The notes beneath the pieces are model-generated. The model did not search any database, had not been told where the DNA came from, and saw only the letters and a program-made list of their open reading frames with translations. A stretch of 64,000 bases of DNA, taken from NCBI GenBank assembly GCA_963765045.1, contig CAVXVF010000003.1, positions 171,488 through 235,487 on the forward strand, read 5' to 3'. Made by a program: the position numbers and the translations under genes. Positions 37,607-49,657 of the stretch are shown here, piece by piece. The stretch's first letter is position 1, and each line of letters begins with the position of its first letter. The stretch comes from Blastocatellia bacterium (GTDB lineage Bacteria > Acidobacteriota > Blastocatellia > Pyrinomonadales > Pyrinomonadaceae).

Positions 37607-40600
37607 ATGATCCCGGAGAAAACGACCATGACCCGATTCAATAAAGCCGCTGACCAAATCCTGAAAGTAAGAAGCATTCAAGTACCTTCCCGACAATTTT
37701 CAGCAATTTTGCTGTTATTTGCTGTGTTGATGCCGATCACCGCGCCGATACCCGCTTGGGCATACAACCTGAACTTGCCGCCGGCGGCTGTCGATGACGG
37801 ATTGCGGTTAACCGCTTCTGGAGAGCATTTTAAAAACTCAATCAGCGATTTTCTGTCGAAGCTGACGAGCGACCCTGCTGCGTTGGTTACGACATCCGCC
37901 GGTGAAAATATAGACAAGGAATCTACATATTCATCGACAGCGTTGGAAAAGCGAGTTGCGGACATAAAGACGGAATTACATGACGGAGAAGTGATAGAGG
38001 TTGGACAGAAGATTTCATTGGCCGCTCGACCGATAGACAAAAAAGGCCTAATTATAAATGGTATCGCCGCTGAGTGGAGCTGTACCAATTCAAAAGTGCT
38101 CCGCATTTTGAACGATTCGGAAGCCGTAGCTATCGCGGAAGGCGAAGCGAAGCTTGTCGTACGTTCGGGGAATGTCATCAGAGAAGTGAGATTTAAAGTC
38201 AACAAGAGAGCTAGAAACGGTGCGAGACCTGTATCGTCCATGCTTGAGCCGCCGGAAATGCCTGTCATTACCGAGCAGCAAGTCGAAAATCTCGTTACCC
38301 CGGAAAATAATCTTGGCAATCCAATTGGACAAACAGAAATGGGTTCGCGGTCCGCGTCAGCGGCACTAAGAACGCGGGAGCGGTTCGGAAGCTCGAATTT
38401 CAGTTTTGATATTCCGGCGGCATCGCTGCCAGGTCGGGGAATCGATGCCTCAGTCGGAATCACATACAACAGCCGCATATGGAATAAGGCGTCATTTGGC
38501 GGAACGGATGTCTATACTTTTAACACGGATGGGAGTTGGCTGGCTCCGGGCTTTGAGATGGGATTTGGCGAGTTGACTCCATACGGATCGGGTACCGTAA
38601 GTGGCTACATGCTTACAAGTCCTGACGGCTCGAGACATCAACTGATTTACAAACAGGCGTCGGGTCAATGTTCGATTTTTGAATCGGCTGATGGGACGTT
38701 TATCGAAACCACGATCTGTGGTATTTATACGACCTCAACCTTGAACGTTGTTTTTCCGGACGGGACACAGGTGATGTATGGTGCGTCTACCGCTTCCGGA
38801 AAACGTTTTCCAATCCGAATTACCGACCGCAACGGCAACATGCTTACCATTGCGTATGTGCAAAACGACACTCAAGGCAAGATTTCGTACATCCGCGATA
38901 CTTTGAACCGGTATATCAATTTCTACTACGACACGCCTGATAATAAGCTGGTGGCGATCACCGTTCCGGGTTTTGACGGCGGTGCCGAACGGCAAACGAT
39001 CAGGTTTTATTACGCTGACATGACTTTCAACTGGATCGGGCGATTTGACGGCACGGTAAATGCCCCGACCACCGTTAAGGTCCTGAAGTATGTATATTTC
39101 CCAGGCACGCAAACAGGTTTTAAATACGATTATTCGCCGTATTTCGGAATGATTCACAAAATCTGGCAAATGCGCGGAATGCTGGTGAGCAGCAACAGCA
39201 CAACCGATACCGGTACTGTTACAAGCGAAGGAACATGGGCCGCATGGACAAGTTACAATTACCCGACAACTCCAGTCCCGACTCTGACTGACGTTCCAAA
39301 ATACACTCAGCGGACCGATGATTGGCTGGGCCGAACGAGCGCCGTTCCACAGACAAATTTCTCAATCAGCGAAGACGTGACACCGGCGGGTTGCGATATA
39401 AGCACCGGAGCCTGCACTGGCACGCGAAACGTCACGGTTACGGCGCCGGACGGCACAAGAAGTATTTCGGTTTCGAAGATAAGACCTTCAATCGATTGGG
39501 AAAACGGTCTGTTGCAGGAAACCAGAATCGAGACCGGCGCGGTCGGGTCGGAAGTAGTTTGGTCTAAGACAAAGCTCTTTTGGGAACAAGGAGCGGGCAG
39601 CACATTGCCCGGTCGAGATAATCCTCGTCTGGACAAAATCGAGGTTACGAACGACGCCAACCAGACAAGAGCAACAACCTTCGATTACGACAATTACAAT
39701 AATCAAACCGTTGTACGGGAACATGATTTTGCCGCGCCAAATAGTGAAGGAACCGAACTAAGAAGAACCGAGACGACGTATGAGACAGGGCTAGGGTGGA
39801 CAAACAATCGGCTTCTTCGCCTGCCCAAAGAGATAAAGACGATCGTCGGCACGGCGACCGTTTCTAAGACCGCTTACGAATATGACAAGAACGGCGAAGC
39901 AGCGGAGACCGCACTCACTCCGAGGCTAGATATTTCCGCTAGCGTGCATGATATAAGATACGACCCCTCGGCGCCGTCGGGACAGCAGTGCGCTCCGCAA
40001 TGCGAGGAGCCGCATCGTTGTTGTTGGACGGTTCACGTTTATCAGGCTTATACGCGGTTTCGCGGAAACGTAACAAAGATCACGGCGTTTTCGGATGCGA
40101 CGCTGGCAAGTGACCCGAACGCTTCGGTTTCGACGGTGAAATATGACATCGCCGGAAACGTAACGGAATCATCGTCAAGCTGCTGCGAACTGAAAACAAC
40201 GCAGTATTCGAACACGAATCACTATGCCTATCCGATGTCCGAAACACGCAACGGGCAGGGATTATCGTTAACCACGAGCGCGACTTACGATGTGCCGACC
40301 GGTTTTGTAAAAACCGCGACGGATGAGAACAATCAGACATCCATGCTGACCTACGACCCTAACAATTTGCGAGTCATCAGAAGCGACGGTCCGGTTGGAA
40401 CGGGCATCTGGTCAACGACGGAGTATAATGATTCGGTGTTTCCTTATCATGTAAAAACGACAAGCAGTCTGGACGCGACGCGGAGTGTATCGGCGTGGAG
40501 TTTTTCAAACGGGCGCGGACAAGGGTTTAGAAGCCGGAGCCAGACAACGGGAGGATATCTTTCGAGCGAGGTCGAATTTGACGTAATGGGTCGTGCCGAG

Positions 40601-43105
40601 AAGAGTTACAATCCGCACACGGTTACCAGTCTGACGGCCGCCCTTCCGACCGGAATAAAATTCTCGCGTATTACATCGCTTGACGGTTTGGGGCGGACGC
40701 TATCGACGACGCTGCCGGATAACACAATTGTCACGGCTACTTACAGCGGTCTTGTGGCGACCGCAACCGATCAGGCTGGAAAACAAAGAAGGCAAATAGC
40801 CGATGCTCTCGGCAGAACTGCGCGTGTCGACGAACCTGATGCGACGGGAAATCTCGGCTTGGTAACTTCGCCGGTTCAACCGACATTTTACGAATACGAC
40901 GGGAACGATAATCTGACAAAAGTTACGCAGTCGATACCGGGCGTGGTGACGCAGGAAAGATTGTTCAAGTACGACAGCCTTTCGCGATTGACACACGAAA
41001 AGCAGGTCGAGGCGAATGCGACGCTCGACAACAACGGCGTCAAGGTCGGGGCGGGCGGCCAGTGGACGGGCGTTTATAAGTACGACTTGGACAGCCTGCT
41101 GGTTGAAGGTTTCGATGCCCGCGGCGTGAAAACGGCGTTTACTTATGACGGTTTGAACCGTGTCAAAACGATTGCATACACCGGCGAGACGGGCTATCAG
41201 ACGCCGACGGCGACTTATACTTACGACGAGACGGAAACCAATTTCTTCAACAACGGGCGGCTGACGAAAGTTCAAACGGCGGCGAATGCCACATACGGAA
41301 TACCGGAGACAATCCAGAATTATCGGTATGACAAAATCGGGCAGGTGACAAAGCACGTCCAAAACATCGGTAATCAGAGTTATCAGCTTGAGTATGGATA
41401 CAATCTGGCCGGACAGTTAATTTCAGAGAAATATCCGTCAGGAAAGATCGTCAATATGACGGTCGATAATTTCGGACGGCTTTCGACGGTTGCGGACGCA
41501 CAGAGGACTTATCTGAGCAGTGTTGGTTTCAACAATCAGGGTCTGCTGTCGCAGATGAATCTGGGTAATGGAACTTCTGAAACGTTTTCTTACAATGACC
41601 GTTTTCAGATGACTTCGCAGAGTTTAAATAAGGGCGCTGAGGTTTTGCAGAAGTATGATTATTCTTACGGCACGGTCGATCTGGCAACAGGAACGGTTAA
41701 TACGCAAACCAATAATGGTCAGCTTTCCAAAATAGAAGGCTGGATAGGTGCCAACAAGCAGTGGAGCCAGAGGTTTGGTTATGACGAGCTTGGCCGATTA
41801 AAAGAAGCCCGCGAGTACAAGCAGGGGGTGAATACTCAGCTTACATACAAACAGGTGTTCGATTTCGACCGTTTCGGGAATCTCTATCGTAAAGCGGCGA
41901 GCAACCCAACGGCGGGTCAGCAGAATCCGCTTACATACACGCCTATCGAAGATGCCCACATTGACAGGGCCAAAAACCGTCTGACAACCGGAACGACCTA
42001 TGACGACGCCGGACAGGTTGTGAATGATACGAAGTTTCGTTCGATGTCGTTCGCCTATGACGCGAACGGCCATCAGGTGAAAGCTATGAGAGCCAGCGTC
42101 CCCGACGCGTGGACGGTTTATGACGCACTCGGAAACAGGGTTGCCACGAAGATCAACGACATCTGGCAATACATGGTTTATGATGCGTTTGGCAAATTAG
42201 TTGCTGAATACGGCGTCGCTTCCGAAACTCTCGGCGGCGTTAAATATCTACAACAAGATTGGCAGGGTTCAGTTCGCACTACGACCAATTCAAACGGTTT
42301 CGTGGTTGCGAGGACAGATCATCAAGCCTTTGGTGACGATGTCGGTTACGGAGTCGGGTTGCGTTCAATCGAGCAGGGATATTCGGTAGGAAAGGTTGCA
42401 AAACAAGGTTACGGTTTAACCGAGAATGATCAAGGTTCTGGACAGCAGCATACTTGGTTTAGGAAACTCGAAACCTCCGCCGGAAGATGGACGGGGCCTG
42501 ATCCGTATAAAGGGTCGATGTCGCTCGGCAATCCGCAATCGTTTAACCGGTATTCTTATGTTGAGAATCAGCCGACAAACTTTGTCGATCCGAGTGGGCT
42601 TTTCATAGTAGCGATTTGTTCTTTTGTTGGCACCTTCATTATCAATTTTGATACTCGTTGGCAGCAAACTGTGGATGTATATTTATGTACCATTATCGAC
42701 TTCGGTGGGGGCGGCCCAATCTTTCCCGTAGAACCTACATCTGGCGGTGGGGTGGGCGAACCTCAATTCGTCAATGCCAAGTTCGACGATGAGTACAAAA
42801 ATTACGATGCGTGCGTTAAAGCTGAAAATCAAAAATGTTTGAACAAAGGCCGTAAAAATTTCAATGAAAATGCTGTGTGGGATGCAGCTTCTTTACCGTT
42901 TACTGGAGGTGCGGGTATTATTTACGCGATGATCAAAAGCGCCGCTCTATGGAGCGCCCGCCTCGCTTTTGGTGCGATTGGAATAGGCGGAGGAATTGCT
43001 CTCGGTCTTTACAGGGCAGCACAGAGAGCGCAAGGGGTTGAGAATGATTGCAAGGAAGAAGTTCCAGCCAAATGTAAAGAATATAAGAGGAGTAACGTGG
43101 CATGA
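37607..43105 (+). CDS. RHS/YD-repeat polymorphic toxin, full length (1832 aa)
   Basis: N-terminal hydrophobic segment FSAILLLFAVLMPITAPIPAWA and a Big_2-like Ig domain (~aa 125-200). Many YD repeats (YDIAGNVTES, YEYDGNDNLTKV, YDSLSRLTHE, YDGLNRVKT, YDELGRLKEA, YDDAGQVVND, YDALGNRVAT, YDAFGKLVAE). The core ends with NQPTNFVDPSGL (Asp codon at 42587), followed by a 167-aa unique tip. Confidence 0.93.
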   Translation: MIPEKTTMTRFNKAADQILKVRSIQVPSRQFSAILLLFAVLMPITAPIPAWAYNLNLPPAAVDDGLRLTASGEHFKNSISDFLSKLTSDPAALVTTSAGENIDKESTYSSTALEKRVADIKTELHDGEVIEVGQKISLAARPIDKKGLIINGIAAEWSCTNSKVLRILNDSEAVAIAEGEAKLVVRSGNVIREVRFKVNKRARNGARPVSSMLEPPEMPVITEQQVENLVTPENNLGNPIGQTEMGSRSASAALRTRERFGSSNFSFDIPAASLPGRGIDASVGITYNSRIWNKASFGGTDVYTFNTDGSWLAPGFEMGFGELTPYGSGTVSGYMLTSPDGSRHQLIYKQASGQCSIFESADGTFIETTICGIYTTSTLNVVFPDGTQVMYGASTASGKRFPIRITDRNGNMLTIAYVQNDTQGKISYIRDTLNRYINFYYDTPDNKLVAITVPGFDGGAERQTIRFYYADMTFNWIGRFDGTVNAPTTVKVLKYVYFPGTQTGFKYDYSPYFGMIHKIWQMRGMLVSSNSTTDTGTVTSEGTWAAWTSYNYPTTPVPTLTDVPKYTQRTDDWLGRTSAVPQTNFSISEDVTPAGCDISTGACTGTRNVTVTAPDGTRSISVSKIRPSIDWENGLLQETRIETGAVGSEVVWSKTKLFWEQGAGSTLPGRDNPRLDKIEVTNDANQTRATTFDYDNYNNQTVVREHDFAAPNSEGTELRRTETTYETGLGWTNNRLLRLPKEIKTIVGTATVSKTAYEYDKNGEAAETALTPRLDISASVHDIRYDPSAPSGQQCAPQCEEPHRCCWTVHVYQAYTRFRGNVTKITAFSDATLASDPNASVSTVKYDIAGNVTESSSSCCELKTTQYSNTNHYAYPMSETRNGQGLSLTTSATYDVPTGFVKTATDENNQTSMLTYDPNNLRVIRSDGPVGTGIWSTTEYNDSVFPYHVKTTSSLDATRSVSAWSFSNGRGQGFRSRSQTTGGYLSSEVEFDVMGRAEKSYNPHTVTSLTAALPTGIKFSRITSLDGLGRTLSTTLPDNTIVTATYSGLVATATDQAGKQRRQIADALGRTARVDEPDATGNLGLVTSPVQPTFYEYDGNDNLTKVTQSIPGVVTQERLFKYDSLSRLTHEKQVEANATLDNNGVKVGAGGQWTGVYKYDLDSLLVEGFDARGVKTAFTYDGLNRVKTIAYTGETGYQTPTATYTYDETETNFFNNGRLTKVQTAANATYGIPETIQNYRYDKIGQVTKHVQNIGNQSYQLEYGYNLAGQLISEKYPSGKIVNMTVDNFGRLSTVADAQRTYLSSVGFNNQGLLSQMNLGNGTSETFSYNDRFQMTSQSLNKGAEVLQKYDYSYGTVDLATGTVNTQTNNGQLSKIEGWIGANKQWSQRFGYDELGRLKEAREYKQGVNTQLTYKQVFDFDRFGNLYRKAASNPTAGQQNPLTYTPIEDAHIDRAKNRLTTGTTYDDAGQVVNDTKFRSMSFAYDANGHQVKAMRASVPDAWTVYDALGNRVATKINDIWQYMVYDAFGKLVAEYGVASETLGGVKYLQQDWQGSVRTTTNSNGFVVARTDHQAFGDDVGYGVGLRSIEQGYSVGKVAKQGYGLTENDQGSGQQHTWFRKLETSAGRWTGPDPYKGSMSLGNPQSFNRYSYVENQPTNFVDPSGLFIVAICSFVGTFIINFDTRWQQTVDVYLCTIIDFGGGGPIFPVEPTSGGGVGEPQFVNAKFDDEYKNYDACVKAENQKCLNKGRKNFNENAVWDAASLPFTGGAGIIYAMIKSAALWSARLAFGAIGIGGGIALGLYRAAQRAQGVENDCKEEVPAKCKEYKRSNVA
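41225..42601 (+). repeat. rhs core segment duplicated in the two downstream orphan cassettes
   Basis: Colinear with 43681-45060 (with a one-codon length difference) and, from ~41390 onward, with 46378-47620. Includes an 80-nt perfect match, 42413-42492 = 44872-44951. Confidence 0.9.
42602..43102 (+). other. RHS C-terminal toxin domain 1 (unassigned; glycine-zipper-like hydrophobic segment)
   Basis: Sequence after DPSGL: FIVAICSF..VYLCTIIDFGGGGP..GGGVGEP..YDACVKAENQKC..GGAGIIYAMIKSAALWSARLAFGAIGIGGGIALGLYRAA. I recognise no catalytic motif. Confidence 0.7.
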
Positions 43106-43539
43106 TTTCTAAGTCTAAATACTCGTCAAAAGATTTTATCCAAGATGTCGCCGTTGCAGCTTTGATTACGACGATGTGTATGCTGGCATTTTTGCGGCGG
43201 GATTATTTGTATGGATCCCAAGATTACGATGGTATCGTATCTGTGTTTTTTTATGTGGGAATTGGGCTAAAAATCATTTTTGTAATAGGCTCCCTTTATT
43301 TACTATTGAGGTTGCAATACCCACAGAGTTTAGTTGCCGGAATAGTTTTGGTCGGTTGCTGGCTGCTTGCTGAATGTTTCCCGAATTCCGTATCAGTTTT
43401 ATTCTTAAAAGAACTGAATGACGTTTTCGGGTATTTTGGGGGCGTATTTATTTACCCGATTTGGCGGTGGCAGAGGCTAACGAACACCAATGCGGAGGTC
43501 TTGGACGACAAACCCACTACTTTGAATTTGAATAACTAG
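43102..43539 (+). CDS. Putative immunity protein 1 (4-TM membrane protein)
   Basis: The ATG overlaps the rhs stop (ATGA). 145 aa with about 4 hydrophobic helices, AT-richer than the flanking sequence. Confidence 0.65.
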   Translation: MISKSKYSSKDFIQDVAVAALITTMCMLAFLRRDYLYGSQDYDGIVSVFFYVGIGLKIIFVIGSLYLLLRLQYPQSLVAGIVLVGCWLLAECFPNSVSVLFLKELNDVFGYFGGVFIYPIWRWQRLTNTNAEVLDDKPTTLNLNN

Positions 43540-43568
43540 AGTGCAGGGGATATGTGAAGGAGCGTTTG

Positions 43569-43680
43569 TATCCTCATTCGTTCAATCTCATCTAGGCTGA
43601 TGGCGTCGCTCGTGCGGTCGTAAAGCTTTGTTGTTCGGGACTAGCATGGGCGGCTATTTCCTGCTCGTAACTGTAAAAAC
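43569..43680 (-). pseudogene. 3' remnant of a tyrosine recombinase/integrase gene (frameshifted and 5'-truncated at the orphan rhs junction)
   Basis: The minus strand reads ..EQEIAAHASP (frame a), then, one missing base later, RTTKLYDRTSDAISLDEIERMRI (frame b). From memory, this matches the conserved C-terminus (..AAHESPRTTKLYDRT.D.I.LDE.ERI.I) of a family of site-specific integrases. Confidence 0.5.
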
Positions 43681-45060
43681 GACGAGACCGAGAGCGGTTT
43701 CCACAACAACGGGCAGTTGACAAAAGTTCAAACGGCGGCGAATGCCACATACGGAATACCGGAGACAATACAGAATTATCGTTACGACAAAATCGGACAG
43801 GTTACAAAGCATGTTCAGACCATCGGCAATCAGAGTTATCAGCTTGAGTATGGATACAACCTCGCCGGACAGTTGGTGAGCGAGAAGTATCCGAGCGGCA
43901 AGATCGTCAACATGACGGTCGATAATTTCGGAAGATTGCAAACTGTCGCCGACGCACAGCGGACTTATCTGAGCAGTGTCGGTTTCAACAATCAGGGTCT
44001 GCTGTCGCAGGTGAATCTCGGCAACGCAACGAGCGAAACTTTTTCGTACAATGACCGTTTTCAGATGACTTCCCAGAGCCTGAATCGCGGTTCGGAAGTT
44101 TTGCAAAAATATGATTATTCTTACGGCACGGTCGATCTGGCAACAGGAACGGTTAATACACAAACCAATAATGGTCAGCTTTCCAAAATAGAAGGTTTTA
44201 TCGGAGCAAACAAGCAGTGGTCGCAGCGGTTCGGTTACGACGAGCTTGGGCGCTTGAAGGAAGCGAGAGAGTACAAGCAGGGCACGAATACTCAACTAAC
44301 TTACAAACAGGTGTTCGACTTCGACCGCTTTGGGAATCTCTATCGAAAGAACGCAAGCAACCCAACCGCAGGGCAGCAGAACCCGCTTATATACACGCCG
44401 ATTGAGAATGCGGACATAGATAAAACTAAAAATCGTCTCACAACCGGAACAACTTACGACGATGCCGGACAGGTTGTGAATGATACGAAGTTTCGTTCGA
44501 TGAGTTTTGCCTACGACGCAAATGGCCGTCAGGTCAACTCTACGAACTCTATAAACTCTACGAACGCTCAAACAGTCTATGACGCACTTGGAAACAGAGT
44601 CGCCACGAAGATCAACGACATTTGGCAGTACATGGTCTATGACGCTTTCGGGAAATTGGTTGCTGAATACGGCACGGCGAGCGAAGGTCTCGGCGGTGTG
44701 AAGTACGTTCAGCAGGACTGGCAAGGCAGTGTCAGAACCGTGACAAATAACAACGGCTTCGTGGTCGCCCGAACGGATCACCAGGCATTCGGCGGCGAAG
44801 TCGGTTACGGAACCGGGCAACGCTCCGTCGAACAAGGCTACAACGTCGGTAAGGTTACAAAACAAGGCTACGGTTTAACCGAGAATGATCAAGGTTCTGG
44901 ACAGCAGCATACTTGGTTTAGGAAACTCGAAACCTCCGCCGGAAGATGGACAGGTCCCGATCCGTACAAGGGTTCAATGTCGCTTGGCAATCCACAGTCG
45001 TTTAATCGATATTCTTACGTTGAAAACCAGCCGACGAATTTTGTTGATCCAAGTGGATTA
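43681..45060 (+). repeat. rhs core copy within orphan cassette 1
   Basis: DETESGFHNNGQLTKVQTAANATYGIPETIQNYRYDKIGQVTKHVQ... parallels main-gene aa ~1207-1665. Confidence 0.9.
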
Positions 45061-45714
45061 CTCTACATCTTATATTGCACATATATTGGATACATGGCCG
45101 ATATGCCCGGTTTTCCAAGTGTGTATTCTTGCCATTTGGTGGAAATTGGCGGCGGCGGCATCGGTGGTCCTAGGGAGCCGCCTGTTCACGGCGGCGGTGT
45201 TGGCAGCGGCGGCAGAGAGACACCACCAGTCGATAGCGATTGTGAAAAATTTGCCAAGTTAGTTGGTGAAATCGCCAAGAGTGCTAAAAATGCCAAAGAT
45301 TTTGCGGATCAGATGGCTAAAAGATTTCTTGGCGTTAACGGAGCCTCATTGAGTGAATTACGCAGGGCGAATGAGGTTGGCGGTGGTGAATCGTTTGGTA
45401 GCTCGGGATTCAAAGAGCAATTTCAGGGGCCTGGCAATCAGGTGCGACACTTTACAGGAGGCCTGATCGGTGGTTACTTGTTTGGAGCAACGGGCGGCGA
45501 TTGGGGAATGTGGTTTGGGGAGGACGACCCAGAGGATATTGCGCTTAATGCGGTTAGCAGTGCTTTAGGAGCCAGAATAGTGGACCCTACGCCTGCGACG
45601 ACAAAGGAGGTTTCCGGTGGGTACAGAAGCGAAATGAGACGTATCGTAAATGTCCCTGCCAATCCTGGATATACTGATTTGGCGGATCGTATTAGGAAAC
45701 AAGTCTGTGAATAA
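43717..45714 (+). CDS. Orphan RHS C-terminal cassette 1 (core fragment plus 217-aa toxin tip 2); no canonical start
   Basis: The in-frame homology begins at 43681, just after a TAG at 43642. Only a TTG (43717) is available as a start. The core ends NQPTNFVDPSGL (Asp at 45046), then a unique tip contains ..GFKEQFQGPGNQVRHFTGGLIGGYLFGATGGDWGMWFGEDDPEDIALN... Confidence 0.8.
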   Translation: MTKVQTAANATYGIPETIQNYRYDKIGQVTKHVQTIGNQSYQLEYGYNLAGQLVSEKYPSGKIVNMTVDNFGRLQTVADAQRTYLSSVGFNNQGLLSQVNLGNATSETFSYNDRFQMTSQSLNRGSEVLQKYDYSYGTVDLATGTVNTQTNNGQLSKIEGFIGANKQWSQRFGYDELGRLKEAREYKQGTNTQLTYKQVFDFDRFGNLYRKNASNPTAGQQNPLIYTPIENADIDKTKNRLTTGTTYDDAGQVVNDTKFRSMSFAYDANGRQVNSTNSINSTNAQTVYDALGNRVATKINDIWQYMVYDAFGKLVAEYGTASEGLGGVKYVQQDWQGSVRTVTNNNGFVVARTDHQAFGGEVGYGTGQRSVEQGYNVGKVTKQGYGLTENDQGSGQQHTWFRKLETSAGRWTGPDPYKGSMSLGNPQSFNRYSYVENQPTNFVDPSGLLYILYCTYIGYMADMPGFPSVYSCHLVEIGGGGIGGPREPPVHGGGVGSGGRETPPVDSDCEKFAKLVGEIAKSAKNAKDFADQMAKRFLGVNGASLSELRRANEVGGGESFGSSGFKEQFQGPGNQVRHFTGGLIGGYLFGATGGDWGMWFGEDDPEDIALNAVSSALGARIVDPTPATTKEVSGGYRSEMRRIVNVPANPGYTDLADRIRKQVCE

Positions 45715-45786
45715 TCAAGGGCGAATTTTGCTTCGTTCCCGGTGTTGATATGCCAAATTTAGTGCAGTAATTCGTTCGAGGTGTTT

Positions 45787-46341
45787 ATGTTCGGGAAAAA
45801 ACTTTCAATCGTATTGTTCGGATGCTTGGTTTTTAGTTCTTGCGGCAAAGGCTACGACACTAAAAAGGTTGTTGAGTCTTGGGAGACAGGAAATCAACAG
45901 TTAAAAATCCGTGTTGCATCATATCCAGAAAATATCCATCTTCTTTATGGGGGAGCATATTATGTTTTTGAGTCATCTAGAAATGGCGAATGGGTAGAGA
46001 TTATGACTGTTAGGCATGATGATCTGACTCCTATTGACAAAAATGGCGTGAAATTCGTTAACGAAAATATTTGCTATGTTTATTCGGGTTCGGGGTTTGC
46101 TGTTACTACGGATGTTGGGAATACGTGGACTCTATGGGATGGTCGGGAACATAATTACTTGGATAAAGAGGTTGAATATGGCGTGATAACAAAGATAGAA
46201 ATCCGAAGCGATGGTCAGGGTGAAATGATCGTATGGGTATTTGCACCCAACAAGAATGATTGTCAAACGGTATTGACAAGCGACTACGGACAAACTTGGG
46301 TGAACGGTAATTTACTTGACAAAGGTAAATGTTCTCTCTAG
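45787..46341 (+). CDS. Putative immunity protein 2: lipoprotein with BNR/Asp-box motifs
   Basis: Lipobox VFSSCGKG and two Asp-box-like S/T-x-D-x-G-x-T-W motifs (TTDVGNTW, TSDYGQTW). Located directly after toxin tip 2. Confidence 0.6.
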   Translation: MFGKKLSIVLFGCLVFSSCGKGYDTKKVVESWETGNQQLKIRVASYPENIHLLYGGAYYVFESSRNGEWVEIMTVRHDDLTPIDKNGVKFVNENICYVYSGSGFAVTTDVGNTWTLWDGREHNYLDKEVEYGVITKIEIRSDGQGEMIVWVFAPNKNDCQTVLTSDYGQTWVNGNLLDKGKCSL

Positions 46342-48214
46342 TTTTGCGCGAAAAAAAACGCCTTGGATAGATGCACAGCAATACAATCTTGAGTACGGCT
46401 ACAATCTGGCCGGGCAATTGATTACGGAGAAATATCCTTCTGGAAAGATCGTCACAACGAGCTATGATGCGAACGGCAGATTGTCGGGCGTCGCCGATCC
46501 TTCTCGGACTTATCTGAGCGGTATGCAGTATTTGGGCAAGGGCAATTCGGTCAGCCAGATGACGCTTGGCAACGGAACGGTTGAGAACTATACGCTTAAC
46601 GACCGTTTTCAAATGACCGGACAGGAGTTGAAACGCGGCACCGAGGTTCTGCAAAAGTACAATTACGGTTATGGCGAGATCGACGGTTCGGGGAATCTTG
46701 TTACGACAAAAAATAACGGTCAGCTTGGAAGAATAGAAAGCTACATCGGCACGGCAAAGCAATCGACGCAGAAGTTTCTTTACGATCACATTGGCCGTTT
46801 GAAAGAATCGGCCGAATATCGCGGTGATAACAATAGTCTGACTTACAAGCAGAAGTTCGATTTTGACAGGTTTGGGAATCTTTATCGGAAAGCCGCGAGC
46901 AACCCAACGGCGGGACAGGCGAATCCATTGGCTTACACTCCGATTGAAGAGACGACGACACCGGGAACGGGCGATATCGAAAAGTCGACGAATCGATTCC
47001 GCACCGGCACGACGTATGACGATGCTGGGCAAGTTGTCGCGGATAATAAATTCCGTTCGATGAACTTTGCCTACGACGCGAATGGCCGTCAGGTCAACTC
47101 TACGAACTCTACAAACTCTACGAACGCTCAAACCGTCTATGATGCGAGCGGAAACAGAGTTGCGACAAAGATCAATAACATCTGGCAGTATATGATCTAC
47201 GACGCCTTCGGAAAACTTGTGGCCGAATACGGCGTAGCGTCAGAAGGCGTGGGCGGAGTAAAATATCTCCAGCAGGATTGGCAAGGCAGCGTGAGAACCG
47301 TAACAAACAATAATGGATTTGTCGTCGGAAGAACGGATCACCAAGCTTTTGGTAATGACGTGGGATACGGAGTCGGGCAACGCTCGGTCGAGCAGGGCTA
47401 TTCGGGTGGTAAAGCTACTCGACAGGGCTATGGATTGACCGAACGCGACGACGCGACGGGACAAGATCACACGTGGTTCAGAAAGAACGAAAACCTCGCC
47501 GGACGCTGGACAAGTCCCGATCCTTATAATGGCTCGATGTCCCTCGGCGACCCGCAGAGTTTCAACCGGTACAGTTATGTCCAAAGTGATCCAACGAATT
47601 TCGTTGATCCGAGTGGGTTGCAAATGGCAATTTGTTATATCGACGGATTCCAGGCAAACTGCAGCACGGCGTTTCACTTGGTGCAATCGGGTGGCGGCTA
47701 CGTCAGTTGGCACAGCGTCGATTGGTTGACGGTTGTCAACGAATACACCCTGATTGATGACCGCTGGACGCGTACTGGTCAATATCTTCATTTTAATCCT
47801 TTATACAATTTTAACCCAGAGGGCAATCTTGGTCCTCGTGGTGGTGGCGGCGGTAACAAAAATAATTCTGAAGATGATTTCTCGGATTGTCGAGATGAAG
47901 TCAGGGCGGAATTTATGTCGGATATATTTGCCGCAAGTGATAAATTTAATAAAGCTAATTCTGACCACATTCTGGATCCGGCATCTCTGAAAACTGCGGC
48001 CCTCGGAATCGTTGGTCTGGCGGGAGGTATTCTTTTCAGGTCTCCGTCGTCACTGTTGAGTGGCTTGGCTGCTTTGTCTTGGGTTCAGGGTGCTTCTTAC
48101 GTCAATTTATATACTCTAGCAAAAGATGTTTGGAAAGCGTATAGGAAAGAAAGAAAGCAGATGGCTAGATGCACACCGATTTTGATCAATAAAAGTAGAA
48201 GTGTTTCGGTATGA
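46316..48214 (+). CDS. Orphan RHS C-terminal cassette 2 (core fragment plus 197-aa toxin tip 3); no canonical start
   Basis: Homology to the main core starts ~46378 (YNLEYGYNLAGQLITEKYPSGKIV). The track ORF begins at a TTG that overlaps the preceding gene. The core ends SDPTNFVDPSGL (Asp at 47606), followed by a unique tip. Confidence 0.8.
   Translation: MTKVNVLSSFARKKTPWIDAQQYNLEYGYNLAGQLITEKYPSGKIVTTSYDANGRLSGVADPSRTYLSGMQYLGKGNSVSQMTLGNGTVENYTLNDRFQMTGQELKRGTEVLQKYNYGYGEIDGSGNLVTTKNNGQLGRIESYIGTAKQSTQKFLYDHIGRLKESAEYRGDNNSLTYKQKFDFDRFGNLYRKAASNPTAGQANPLAYTPIEETTTPGTGDIEKSTNRFRTGTTYDDAGQVVADNKFRSMNFAYDANGRQVNSTNSTNSTNAQTVYDASGNRVATKINNIWQYMIYDAFGKLVAEYGVASEGVGGVKYLQQDWQGSVRTVTNNNGFVVGRTDHQAFGNDVGYGVGQRSVEQGYSGGKATRQGYGLTERDDATGQDHTWFRKNENLAGRWTSPDPYNGSMSLGDPQSFNRYSYVQSDPTNFVDPSGLQMAICYIDGFQANCSTAFHLVQSGGGYVSWHSVDWLTVVNEYTLIDDRWTRTGQYLHFNPLYNFNPEGNLGPRGGGGGNKNNSEDDFSDCRDEVRAEFMSDIFAASDKFNKANSDHILDPASLKTAALGIVGLAGGILFRSPSSLLSGLAALSWVQGASYVNLYTLAKDVWKAYRKERKQMARCTPILINKSRSVSV
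46378..47620 (+). repeat. rhs core copy within orphan cassette 2
   Basis: More diverged than copy 1, but colinear through to DPSGL. Confidence 0.85.
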
Positions 48215-48353
48215 CTCTGAAATCCAGGATTAACTTGGGTTATCCATTTTAGCGTGGCACTTTATTAAATAGTTGAACCAGAACCTATCGCTGGTCAGTT
48301 TTTGAACCGAATATGGAGTAATTTTGTACAAATCCCTGAAAAAGGTCACCATC

Positions 48354-48641
48354 ATGTACGGCCTGAAAAATGATATGCGAATAATAAAGCAGATTAATAG
48401 GATTCAAGAGTTATTGTTTACATCTCCGTCTAAGATTCCCCAAATCTTTCACATGTATCCATCTCTATTATTGTTGATCGGTATAAGTATTTTAGGGACG
48501 TCGGCCCTTGGATTCTTTTGGGCAATAGGCCATGAAAAAAATATCATTCTCTTCGCTTTGTCTATTGTCTTATTCTTGTTAAGCATTTCAATTCTGATTT
48601 CGTATTGGCGAATTTACCATTGTAAGCATCCAGTAAAATAG
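48354..48641 (+). CDS. Putative immunity protein 3 (2-TM membrane protein)
   Basis: MYGLKNDMRIIKQ... with helices YPSLLLLIGISILGTSALGFFWAI and IILFALSIVLFLLSISILISYW. AT-rich, and lies downstream of toxin tip 3. Confidence 0.55.
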   Translation: MYGLKNDMRIIKQINRIQELLFTSPSKIPQIFHMYPSLLLLIGISILGTSALGFFWAIGHEKNIILFALSIVLFLLSISILISYWRIYHCKHPVK

Positions 48642-48721
48642 TACCAGACAGAATTACCGTTTCCGTTCAGAATAGGAAGGAAAATGACGAGGAGTAAGAT
48701 CCGTATTCGAAACATTGCCGT

Positions 48722-49657
48722 TCATTGGACATTCTTGTCGTAGATGTCGTGAAGAACTTCGGTGATGGGCTTGCGGTCGGCGAACGGGTCTTTCTTTAGT
48801 TTTTTCGAATTGTTCTTTTCTTCGTGTCGATGGGAAGCCCCGGAAGTTCTCGCTGTAGCTTTGTCGAAGGCTTCGAACGTAGTGTCGGTCACGCTTCGCC
48901 GTGGCTGGACTTGCGAGTGTTCGGGAAGAACCTGAACGTCGTTGAGATCAGTGTTTTGAGAGCCATTAGTGTGCGTGTTCTTCGCGTAAATAGTGCGGCT
49001 TTCTTCGAGAAGAGCTTTGCCGCGAAGCTTACGGGCACGTTCCAAAGCGCGGATAGATGCAGATGTCAGCGGAGCATCGGCCGGATCGCGTTCGATCTTC
49101 CGTAGCACCTTTACATAATTTCTCAGCTCCGGCGATGGATAAACGTAGGAGGTCTCGTTGGCAGTATCATTTTCGATGACGTGCGAAAGGCAGTTGATGG
49201 CGGACTGATGATCGCCGGCTTTGTGGTAAAGAGCTCCGAGCGCGAAATAGACTAGCGGCGGAGCACCGCTCATCCTGTTCAATATCGCCTCACCACGGGC
49301 GATCGAATCCTTTATTTCAAAACCGAACCAGTTGCGGCCGTCATCACGGAGCATTTCGTTGGCGGACAGATAAAATTCGAAGATGTCGCGGGTCTCGTTC
49401 CTCGTGCCCGATGCGAACATCTTGAATAGGAAATAAGCGAAAACTCCGAAAAAGAAGATAACAAACACCGGAAAGCCCGCCACCAAAAGCATCGACGCGA
49501 CAACGCCAAAGGCAATGAAATATTGACCTTTTTCCTTTATCGAACCAGGTGCTTTTTTTTGTATCTTGTTCTCGTTCACAGATAATAAGTGCAGTCCAAA
49601 AAATTGAGTCAAGCGAATCTGACGGAAATATTCTTTCGTCTTGTTCATCTGTTCCAT
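48722..49657 (-). CDS. Hypothetical membrane protein with TPR-like helical domain
   Basis: 311 aa. TM pair (YFIAFGVVASMLLVAGFPVFVIFFFGVFAYFLF) and a helical C-terminal part. Its first codons lie inside the left arm of the 49640-49716 hairpin element. Confidence 0.55.
   Translation of the reverse strand: MEQMNKTKEYFRQIRLTQFFGLHLLSVNENKIQKKAPGSIKEKGQYFIAFGVVASMLLVAGFPVFVIFFFGVFAYFLFKMFASGTRNETRDIFEFYLSANEMLRDDGRNWFGFEIKDSIARGEAILNRMSGAPPLVYFALGALYHKAGDHQSAINCLSHVIENDTANETSYVYPSPELRNYVKVLRKIERDPADAPLTSASIRALERARKLRGKALLEESRTIYAKNTHTNGSQNTDLNDVQVLPEHSQVQPRRSVTDTTFEAFDKATARTSGASHRHEEKNNSKKLKKDPFADRKPITEVLHDIYDKNVQ

Follow-up and report, generated by a model that had tools for sequence, protein, structure and literature searches.

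Introduction

Displaced orphan toxin/immunity modules are a familiar feature of the rhs loci of Escherichia coli, Salmonella and Serratia. This work concerns a locus of the same kind in a 64,000-nucleotide stretch of contig CAVXVF010000003.1, from a Blastocatellia bacterium of the family Pyrinomonadaceae (Acidobacteriota), the whole of which is referred to below as the window. Its subject is the C-terminal tip of a start-less rhs fragment together with the small lipoprotein encoded directly downstream, which an initial annotation, made from the sequence without database searches, had put forward as an unassigned toxin and its candidate immunity protein. The interbacterial weapons of Acidobacteriota are, to our knowledge, almost unstudied. 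The architecture of Rhs toxin/immunity loci is well known, and the toxin and immunity families described here are both new.

Pore-forming toxins are usually paired with polytopic membrane immunity proteins. Tse5-CT of Pseudomonas aeruginosa, an Rhs pore-forming toxin with glycine-zipper-type helices that acts on the envelope from the periplasmic side, is countered by the integral membrane protein Tsi5. For periplasmic enzymes, such as the toxins of the Tse1/Tsi1 and Tle/Tli pairs, the usual antidotes are globular periplasmic or lipoprotein inhibitors (PMC3391265, PMC9860674). Tsi1, which protects against the peptidoglycan amidase Tse1, consists of three antiparallel sheets that make up a partial beta-propeller (PMC3391265). 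Members of the PA0261/Tpi family reach the periplasm as soluble, lipoprotein or transmembrane (TM)-anchored forms, a Gly at position +2 of the lipoprotein forms being read as a signal for outer-membrane sorting (PMC6899460). Tli3 of adherent-invasive E. coli (AIEC) is an all-beta outer-membrane lipoprotein of three stacked beta-sheets, which blocks a phospholipase toxin by 1:1 binding (PMC9860674). The collection of immunity families assembled by Zhang et al. in 2012 contains one lipoprotein family only, Imm65 (PMC3482391).

The present locus shares with the described Rhs/YD-repeat loci a full-length rhs followed by start-less 3' fragments, the PxxxxDPxGL motif, a variable tip, a small immunity open reading frame (ORF) and cassettes of lower guanine-cytosine (GC) content (PMC3482391). 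It differs from them in that its tip and immunity families are uncatalogued, its carrier bears a Sec signal and the window offers no PAAR or VgrG context. The best overall explanation, to which we assign a probability of about 0.5, is an orphan-module toxin/immunity cassette in which a helical toxin acting in the periplasm, most likely as an enzyme on peptidoglycan or its lipid-linked precursor, would be inhibited by a partial-propeller lipoprotein.

Results and discussion

The tip and the lipoprotein are linked across deeply diverged loci

The two proteins, whose lengths are given in amino acids (aa), are encoded as follows:

45223..45711, + strand: toxin domain of 163 aa (stop at 45712-45714), predicted to be helical, comprising six helices and a beta-hairpin; uncatalogued family
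45787..46341, + strand: immunity candidate, an Asp-box lipoprotein of 184 aa from ATG 45787, with an alternative GTG start at 45781

When 1.84 billion representative proteins were searched exhaustively with HMMER, 86 relatives of the toxin domain emerged at E <= 1e-3, and a word-indexed protein search with the tip alone returned only 2 proteins. Three spurious PA14-like repeat proteins (P0073, P0091 and P0095), which matched through the motif DDxxELWLSTD, were excluded from the tip family. When loci were fetched through the lipoprotein, a homologous tip was found immediately upstream in 6/6; the carriers comprised a full-length Rhs (1971 aa), orphan fragments (567 aa) and another Rhs, amounting to four Rhs contexts with differing linkers. 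Retrieval through the toxin alone produced 12 loci from named genomes and 47 from metagenomes, with 60 tip hits, and an Asp-box ORF lay directly downstream on the same strand of 39 of these hits, typically at a gap of -9 to 74 nucleotides (nt). Among full-length tips the Asp-box gene followed in 20/21, the exception (L035) being followed by a sequence that begins like the immunity protein and then loses its frame. The tips of the Asp-box-paired loci retrieved in this way are merely 33-46% identical to that of the window, and the linkage between tip and Asp-box protein has therefore survived deep divergence.

Pairwise distances between tips and between their immunity proteins also correlate (Mantel r = 0.79 for 24 distinct pairs; 0/2000 permutations), a pattern expected of inheritance as a unit that kinship alone could also produce, and which is hence supporting rather than decisive. 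Linkage and co-divergence together strongly support the proposed immunity function of the lipoprotein, and the two proteins very probably constitute a toxin/immunity pair, between which we infer direct binding. Two tandem arrays were observed, of the order tip-immunity-tip-immunity in a metagenome-assembled genome (MAG) of Acidobacteriota (L012:810-2872) and immunity-tip-immunity in a metagenome contig (L034:2-1288), so that the cassette evidently duplicates and diversifies in place.

The toxin family is, judging by the sequences collected, rare and made up mostly of Rhs C-termini from Acidobacteriota. The domain is nearly always C-terminal in its relatives, and upstream of it an Rhs-associated core (NCBIfam Rhs_assc_core, TIGR03696) was recognised in 29/87 family members, RHS repeats in 9 and eCIS_core (DUF4157) in 2. 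All named relatives within the Asp-box-linked tip subfamily are MAGs of Acidobacteriota. The two eCIS_core proteins, P0071 and P0078, end in tip-like domains, and the same toxin is therefore used by carriers beyond Rhs.

The lipoprotein gene is single-copy in its 4.5-Mb genome. In samples of genomes, where a missing count means not found in those searched rather than absent, the immunity family occurred in 3 of 401 genomes of the phylum and in 1 of 13 other genomes of the genus, and the tip family in 6 of the 401; the tip was not found in two of the immunity-positive genomes. Being single-copy and present in just 3/401 sampled genomes, the lipoprotein is not a housekeeping protein, and the wide conservation in such a role that the initial annotation had named as an objection to its own proposal was not encountered. 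A genome of the same genus (L071:1408-1959) carries an Asp-box homologue with a TM anchor and no toxin upstream, located beside a ParE-family toxin gene and a UvrA-like gene, which looks like an orphan immunity gene.

Could the lipoprotein instead serve the Rhs toxin in an accessory capacity, for instance as its chaperone, as its receptor or in its export or tethering, or else be an unrelated, hitch-hiking envelope protein? Asp-box propellers are mostly enzymes or scaffolds, and in one genome (L072) an Asp-box domain is encoded behind a different, HExxH-type toxin tail. However, the lipoprotein tracks the toxin domain and not the Rhs carrier, be it a full-length Rhs, an orphan fragment or a tandem array, and it co-diverges with the tip. 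It also stands alone beside unrelated genes in the toxin-free locus just described, which is typical of immunity genes, and its position, size and orientation fit the rule for polymorphic toxin systems (PMC3482391). A role other than immunity is accordingly very improbable.

The partners of the toxin superfamily point to the cell envelope

A periplasm-facing lipoprotein as immunity protein had been taken to imply a periplasmic or cell-envelope target. This view is now strongly supported by four lines of evidence, namely exported or membrane-bound partners, a conserved cysteine pair, carriers with Sec signals and fusions linked to peptidoglycan, and we hold with considerable confidence that the toxin acts in the envelope.

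Across the tip superfamily the immunity candidates are all exported or membrane-bound, and none is a plain cytosolic protein. The downstream partners of distant tip subfamilies include small unrelated lipoproteins (L016, L018 and L063) and TM-anchored proteins (L048, L055 and L075). On the metagenome contig Ga0134127_10011656 (L061:1925-3004), a distant tip precedes a 359-aa Ycf48-like BNR propeller lipoprotein, which matches PSII_BNR at E 3.6e-30 and Pfam Tli3 at 27.7 bits vs a threshold of 27. Its existence suggests that the 184-aa family of the window may represent such propellers in shortened form, and that the Pfam Tli3 family may be BNR-related. Three loci from genomes of the same family as that of the window (L077, L078 and L079) encode Rhs proteins with tips of a DQVHHF subfamily, in which D-D replaces N-E; their partners are proteins of 147-171 aa with about four TM helices, not lipoproteins, which indicates that the type of immunity protein switches between subfamilies of one toxin fold. 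On two Planctomycetes-type contigs (L014:3442-4395 and L047:1942-2895), the gene behind a distant tip encodes a lipoprotein that has a calcineurin-like metallophosphoesterase domain (E 2e-13); such a protein is unusual in an immunity position and may be unrelated to the toxin.

The carriers are informative as well. Both the full-length Rhs of the window and that of L001 begin with a Sec-type signal peptide ending in ...PAWA, followed by an immunoglobulin-like region, and Pfam recognises no PAAR domain on the former. A Sec-exported carrier exposes the envelope of the producer itself to the toxin, which explains why the immunity protein would be periplasmic. Two homologues of the TssC/VipB sheath protein (469 and 233 bits) are encoded on other contigs (C18:165558-166457 and C2:509694-510569); a type VI secretion system (T6SS) or a related contractile system therefore exists in this genome, unlinked to the rhs locus.

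The toxin domain has a confidently predicted helical fold without catalogued relatives

The conserved elements of the toxin, numbered within the 163-aa domain, map to the window as follows:

45241..45243, + strand: Cys7, N-terminal partner in a probable disulfide with Cys162
45439..45450, + strand: Q73-V-R75-H76 motif, where the long Gly-zipper helix begins (73-97 in the model); candidate active-site element
45520..45549, + strand: E100...D105...N109 (GEDDPEDIALN), with E100 and D105 conserved superfamily-wide; candidate catalytic acids
45706..45708, + strand: Cys162, C-terminal partner in the probable disulfide, in the motif IRKQVCE

Conservation is concentrated at Cys7, G62-F63, N72-Q73-x-R75-H76-F77, E100, D105, L108-N109, G116, I157-R158 and Cys162, and a glycine zipper, G80/G84/G88/(G/A)92, is conserved in addition. 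The initial annotation had pointed to a possible polar cluster composed of Q-x-R-H and D-D-x-E. Its first half proved near-invariant in the tip family (Q in 104/107, R in 101/107 and H in 106/107); the acidic conservation falls not on D-D-x-E but on E100 (102/107) and D105 (105/107), accompanied by N109 (93/107).

Both cysteines are present in about 90 of some 96 family members for which both ends are available. Four otherwise conserved relatives have no N-terminal Cys, and the C-terminal Cys is missing in all four as well, a joint loss that fits a disulfide better than a nucleophile. The first and last helices are thus probably joined by a Cys7-Cys162 disulfide, which would place the domain in an oxidising compartment. 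A papain-like catalytic dyad of Cys7 and His76 was considered and rejected on the strength of the same four relatives.

The AlphaFold2 model of the toxin, built from an alignment of 44 sequences, reached a mean predicted local distance difference test score (pLDDT) of 88.6 and a predicted template modelling score (pTM) of 0.83. It comprises helices at residues 6-20, 24-36, 43-52, 73-97, 103-116 and 149-160 and a hairpin at 126-131/139-144. The tip stayed unassigned in profile and structure searches alike. Pfam, NCBIfam and PHROGs gave no match for the tip of the window or for 44 relatives scanned singly, apart from isolated sub-threshold matches in single relatives, Tim17, OMP_b-brl and Bacteriocin_IIc among them. 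Among PDB sequences the tip profile matched nothing below E 0.2, and Foldseek found no match to the model among 350,542 PDB chains (best E 0.64, template modelling (TM) score <= 0.31) or in BFVD. The G-protein-coupled receptor and other helical matches that Foldseek listed were disregarded at these TM scores of <= 0.31. Nor did the tip match, by hidden Markov model or by fold, any of the peptidoglycan hydrolase families considered (SLT/lysozyme-like, NlpC/P60, Amidase_2/3, M15/M23, GH73 and others). The family is new to the catalogues, with a confidently predicted fold that has no neighbour in the PDB.

Fusions and antidotes favour an enzyme over a membrane-perturbing toxin

Peptidoglycan hydrolases are typically built as a catalytic domain plus a binding domain or as two enzymes in one chain. 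A divergent subfamily of the toxin, named here NQVQHAMAG, occurs in three architectures, one of them on Rhs (P0100). In P0080 the tip-like domain lies N-terminal to an Amidase_3 domain (hhalign probability 98%, E 2.6e-13 against the tip profile), and in P0099 it is combined with an OmpA-type peptidoglycan-binding domain (hhalign probability 97%); H76, E100 and D105 are retained in both fusions. The neighbours of the amidase fusion (L069) contain no recognisable domains. Viral contigs, scanned for the tip family as well as for the fusion to the amidase, yielded no match, and so gave no evidence for a phage lysin module.

These peptidoglycan-linked fusions, and the fact that globular periplasmic or lipoprotein antidotes are typical of periplasmic enzymes, favour an enzymatic activity. 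The near-invariant residues of the toxin are polar (Q, R, H, E, D and N). That the toxin is an enzyme acting on peptidoglycan or on its lipid-linked precursor (lipid II) is a tentative assignment, to which we would give slightly less than an even chance. A target of the latter kind, on the outer side of the inner membrane, would also be in keeping with the membrane proteins that partner the distant subfamily.

The glycine zipper raises another prospect, a non-enzymatic pore former or ionophore whose helix G80/G84/G88/G92 would enter the inner membrane from the periplasm and dissipate its potential, the lipoprotein intercepting it ahead of insertion. The conserved GxxxGxxxGxxxG helix, the weak Pfam matches to Tim17 and Bacteriocin_IIc through the zipper segment in single family members and the 4-TM proteins that follow the DQVHHF relatives would all suit such a toxin, and Tse5-CT shows that pore-forming Rhs toxins exist. 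Hydropathy argues the other way, as the best 19-residue Kyte-Doolittle window scores 0.78 in the tip of the window and has a median of 0.95 in the family, which is not of TM grade, with 4/44 members reaching 1.6; the zipper helix, moreover, mostly carries K, R, N or D in its middle portion. A compact soluble fold is predicted with high confidence, conservation is strongest on the polar residues, the partner is a globular periplasmic lipoprotein with one signal/anchor segment instead of a polytopic protein, and the Amidase_3 and OmpA fusions are better suited to a cell-wall enzyme. The toxin thus resembles Tse5-CT in being a C-terminal Rhs toxin of the envelope with a glycine-zipper-type helix, and differs from it in having no hydrophobic segment of TM grade, polar conserved residues and a lipoprotein for immunity. 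On balance, a membrane-perturbing mode of action seems unlikely, and the probability that this and the enzymatic assignment leave over belongs to other envelope targets.

The lipoprotein may be a reduced Asp-box propeller

The features of the immunity candidate are these:

45787..45843, + strand: signal peptide and lipobox, MFGKKLSIVLFGCLVFSSC then GKG; lipobox at 45832-45843, lipidated Cys at 45841-45843, Gly at +2
46105..46128, + strand: Asp-box 1, TTDVGNTW, located by regular expression; its T, D, G and W are constant or nearly so in 44 homologues
46276..46299, + strand: Asp-box 2, TSDYGQTW, located by regular expression; conserved in 44 homologues

The start at ATG 45787 is likelier than GTG 45781, because GAGG lies ahead of it at 45778-81, leaving a 5-nt spacer, and because every homologue, at 182-184 aa, starts at the equivalent Met. 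The N-terminus was parsed by eye into MFGKK, LSIVLFGCLVF and SSC followed by G, with a non-canonical F at -3. The lipobox Cys is invariant in 8 close homologues, and in distant Asp-box homologues the N-terminus carries a lipobox or else a TM anchor. The lipobox FSSC and the two Asp-boxes that the initial annotation had read next to the tip are indeed there. Across the six reading frames of the window (127,996 codons) the strict pattern [ST]xDxGx[ST]W has only two occurrences, each of them within the lipoprotein ORF, so the Asp-boxes lie well beyond chance.

A word-indexed search of 5.8 billion proteins returned 8 homologues of the lipoprotein, none of them named, and 44 family members were gathered from the loci. 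Their alignment revealed a degenerate third Asp-box-like element around the invariant W71 and a conserved HDDP motif. The close subfamily (the window and P0004-P0008) has two extra cysteines (NDCQT and GKCSL/ECSF; 46261-46335 in the window) that are absent in distant homologues and may form a subfamily-specific disulfide in the periplasmic domain.

Profile and structure searches with the lipoprotein returned only sialidases matched through Asp-boxes and non-significant WD40- or propeller-like folds. The lipoprotein had no match in Pfam, NCBIfam or PHROGs: Pfam BNR (PF02012) matched 24 of the 44 family members (best E 5.9e-5) and not the window protein, even at E <= 1, and Pfam Tli3 (PF24316) matched 2 of the 44 weakly (E 6e-4) and again not the window protein. 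In the PDB profile search sialidases aligned solely via the Asp-boxes (E >= 0.5). The AlphaFold2 model, derived from 8 sequences and of moderate confidence (pLDDT 62.7, pTM 0.58), is all-beta with 14 strands. Numbered from GTG 45781, Asp-box 1 falls between strands 106-111 and 115-120 and Asp-box 2 between strands 160-165 and 171-174, which places both between strands 3 and 4 of successive four-stranded units. The model suggests a partial propeller of about three four-stranded blades in some 165 mature residues.

This predicted arrangement would fit the BNR/Asp-box propellers (GH33 sialidases, Ycf48/HCF136 and Sortilin-Vps10), in which the canonical S/T-x-D-x-G-x-T-W motif occupies the strand 3-4 hairpin of four-stranded blades; it departs from them in having about three predicted blades vs 6-7, no catalytic signature and the genomic role of a toxin partner. 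A sialidase-like enzymatic role was rejected, the protein being too small and devoid of catalytic motifs, including FRIP. The hallmarks of six-bladed GH33 enzymes are a length of at least 350 aa, an Arg triad, a nucleophile and FRIP, against which the lipoprotein offers about 165 mature aa and about three blades.

The remark in the initial annotation that this fold is normally associated with sialidase-type propellers and not with immunity proteins holds in part, since precedents for immunity proteins exist in the partial propeller of Tsi1 (PMC3391265) and in BNR propeller lipoproteins that cross-match Pfam Tli3. By analogy, Tse1/Tsi1 may be regarded as the closest functional counterpart of the pair, given that Tsi1 is a three-sheet partial propeller. 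In that T6SS-dependent pair of P. aeruginosa (PMC3391265), as here, a toxin acting in the periplasm faces a small all-beta periplasmic protein, for which about three blades are predicted in the present case. The resemblance is architectural only: Tsi1 has no Asp-boxes, no sequence similarity to it was found in the PDB profile search, and no Tsi1 entry appeared in the top 50 Foldseek matches of the lipoprotein. Tse1, for its part, is a Cys amidase of the NlpC/P60 type carried as T6SS cargo, whereas the toxin of the window is a helical domain, of a fold without known relative, carried on a Sec-signal Rhs.

A second analogue is the C-terminal metallopeptidase of VgrG2b (Tpe) with PA0261 (Tpi; Tli3 in Berni et al.), likewise a periplasmic effector/immunity pair (PMC6899460, PMC6560169). 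It would be the closest analogue for the ways in which the immunity family enters the periplasm, as the varied routes of PA0261, by a lipoprotein with Gly at +2 or by a TM anchor, are matched by the Asp-box family. The toxin differs from that of VgrG2b in having neither an HExxH motif nor a metallopeptidase fold and in being borne on Rhs, not VgrG. The AIEC pairs Tle1-Tli1 and Tle3-Tli3 (PMC9860674) also have a lipoprotein immunity gene directly downstream of a toxin acting in the periplasm; the toxin described here has no alpha/beta-hydrolase fold or GxSxG motif, and no similarity to AIEC Tli3 was found in the PDB search.

Acidobacteriota-like soil bacteria seem to use BNR-type lipoproteins repeatedly as a scaffold for immunity. 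In a genome of the same class (L072:2-1971), a different toxin tail, which has HExxH (MLHELMHV) and ends in a Cys, precedes a 337-aa frame whose C-terminal half resembles the Asp-box immunity proteins, and the Asp-box scaffold may therefore serve more than one toxin type.

Proposed mode of action

We propose that the rhs locus holds a cognate toxin/immunity cassette as a displaced orphan module. The 163-aa domain would be a compact, soluble toxin composed mainly of helices, of which the first and the last are probably stapled by a disulfide, and it would work beyond the cytoplasm, at the periplasmic face of the envelope, most likely attacking peptidoglycan or the lipid-linked precursor, with H76, E100 and D105, joined by Q73 and R75, as candidate active-site residues. 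The lipid-anchored, periplasm-facing beta protein would bind the toxin 1:1 and block it, shielding the producer and its kin, and the immunity gene could be useful by itself against neighbours that carry the toxin.

Several observations weigh against this proposal. The toxin has no sequence or fold similarity to known peptidoglycan hydrolases or to solved structures. The link to peptidoglycan consists of only two fusion proteins, both members of a divergent subfamily that has other residues in place of R75 and N109, and the OmpA fusion would also suit a membrane-associated domain. The partners of the DQVHHF subfamily are 4-TM membrane proteins of the kind usual with membrane-acting toxins, and the conserved GxxxG zipper helix could insert into a membrane. 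On the side of the lipoprotein, the model stands at a pLDDT of 62.7 and the Foldseek matches, although WD40- or propeller-like, are non-significant. Finally, the orphan copy is without its own start.

The immunity family is uncatalogued, and its Asp-box propeller is predicted to be reduced to about three blades. Should the toxin prove to act enzymatically on peptidoglycan or lipid II, cell-wall biology would gain a new catalytic fold, together with a new inhibitor scaffold; if the mini-propeller is an inhibitor, it would represent a new use of the BNR blade in inhibiting proteins. A structurally new class of envelope enzyme in every one of these respects, with a helical disulfide-stapled fold and an H/E/D active site that cleaves peptidoglycan or lipid II and with a three-blade Asp-box mini-propeller as its inhibitor, is a rather unlikely combination.

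The orphan rhs fragment and its possible expression

The rhs array of the window consists of a full-length rhs (37607-43105, 1832 aa) followed by two start-less 3' fragments, each with its own small ORF downstream. The first fragment, which carries the toxin, is made up as follows:

43717..45714, + strand: orphan rhs fragment 1, a 665-aa ORF with the 3' end of the Rhs core, linker and toxin domain, lacking the rhs N-terminus
45046..45060, + strand: DPSGL, end of the Rhs-associated core, read from the sequence as ...PTNFVDPSGL, a PxxxxDPxGL autoproteolysis-type motif
45061..45222, + strand: variable linker, 54 aa, Cys/hydrophobic and then poly-Gly/Pro, outside the conserved toxin domain

Pfam RHS_repeat matches this fragment at E 8e-13 and the full-length rhs at E 1e-14. 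Three features of an Rhs polymorphic toxin cassette are found: YD/RHS repeats upstream, PxxxxDPxGL before a variable tip and a co-oriented gene downstream that tracks the tip. The whole tip after DPSGL, with the Lys/Ala-rich helices and Gly-rich block noted at the outset, occupies 45061-45714 (217 aa plus stop). Its division into linker (45061-45222) and conserved toxin domain (45223-45711) follows from the fact that homologous tips share only their last ~160 residues; the linkers of L001, L003 and L006, which were compared, are unrelated.

The ORF of fragment 1 opens inside the Rhs core and so lacks a region for trafficking or export at its N-terminus. Related bacteria bear this tip as the primary one on a full-length Sec-signal Rhs, as in L001 (1971 aa). 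Fragment 1 shares about 1.3 kb of core homology with the full-length rhs upstream, and delivery from this genome would require recombination of the cassette onto that Sec-signal Rhs. The copy in this genome might instead be a silent relic, its start-less toxin never being made and the immunity gene alone functioning against neighbours. The missing export region would be in keeping with such a fate, as would a promoter and terminator scan that gave no promoter-like signal above shuffled-sequence background and the toxin-free immunity homologues of other genomes, among them that of the same genus (L071). Yet the frame of 665 aa is unbroken, none of the conserved residues of the toxin domain is lost, and the core homology would permit a tip swap by recombination. 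We regard a relic as quite improbable, and it would in any case be compatible with the functions assigned to both proteins.

GC content falls to ~0.41 over the immunity gene vs ~0.50 in the Rhs core. The same drop is seen at all three small ORFs in immunity positions (43200-43600, 45600-46400 and 48000-48800), with values of ~0.40-0.41 vs 0.47-0.55 in the Rhs cores, which fits cassettes that are exchanged horizontally. At its 3' end the lipoprotein gene runs 26 nt (46316-46341) into the second orphan rhs ORF, counted from the earliest possible start of the latter, TTG 46316.

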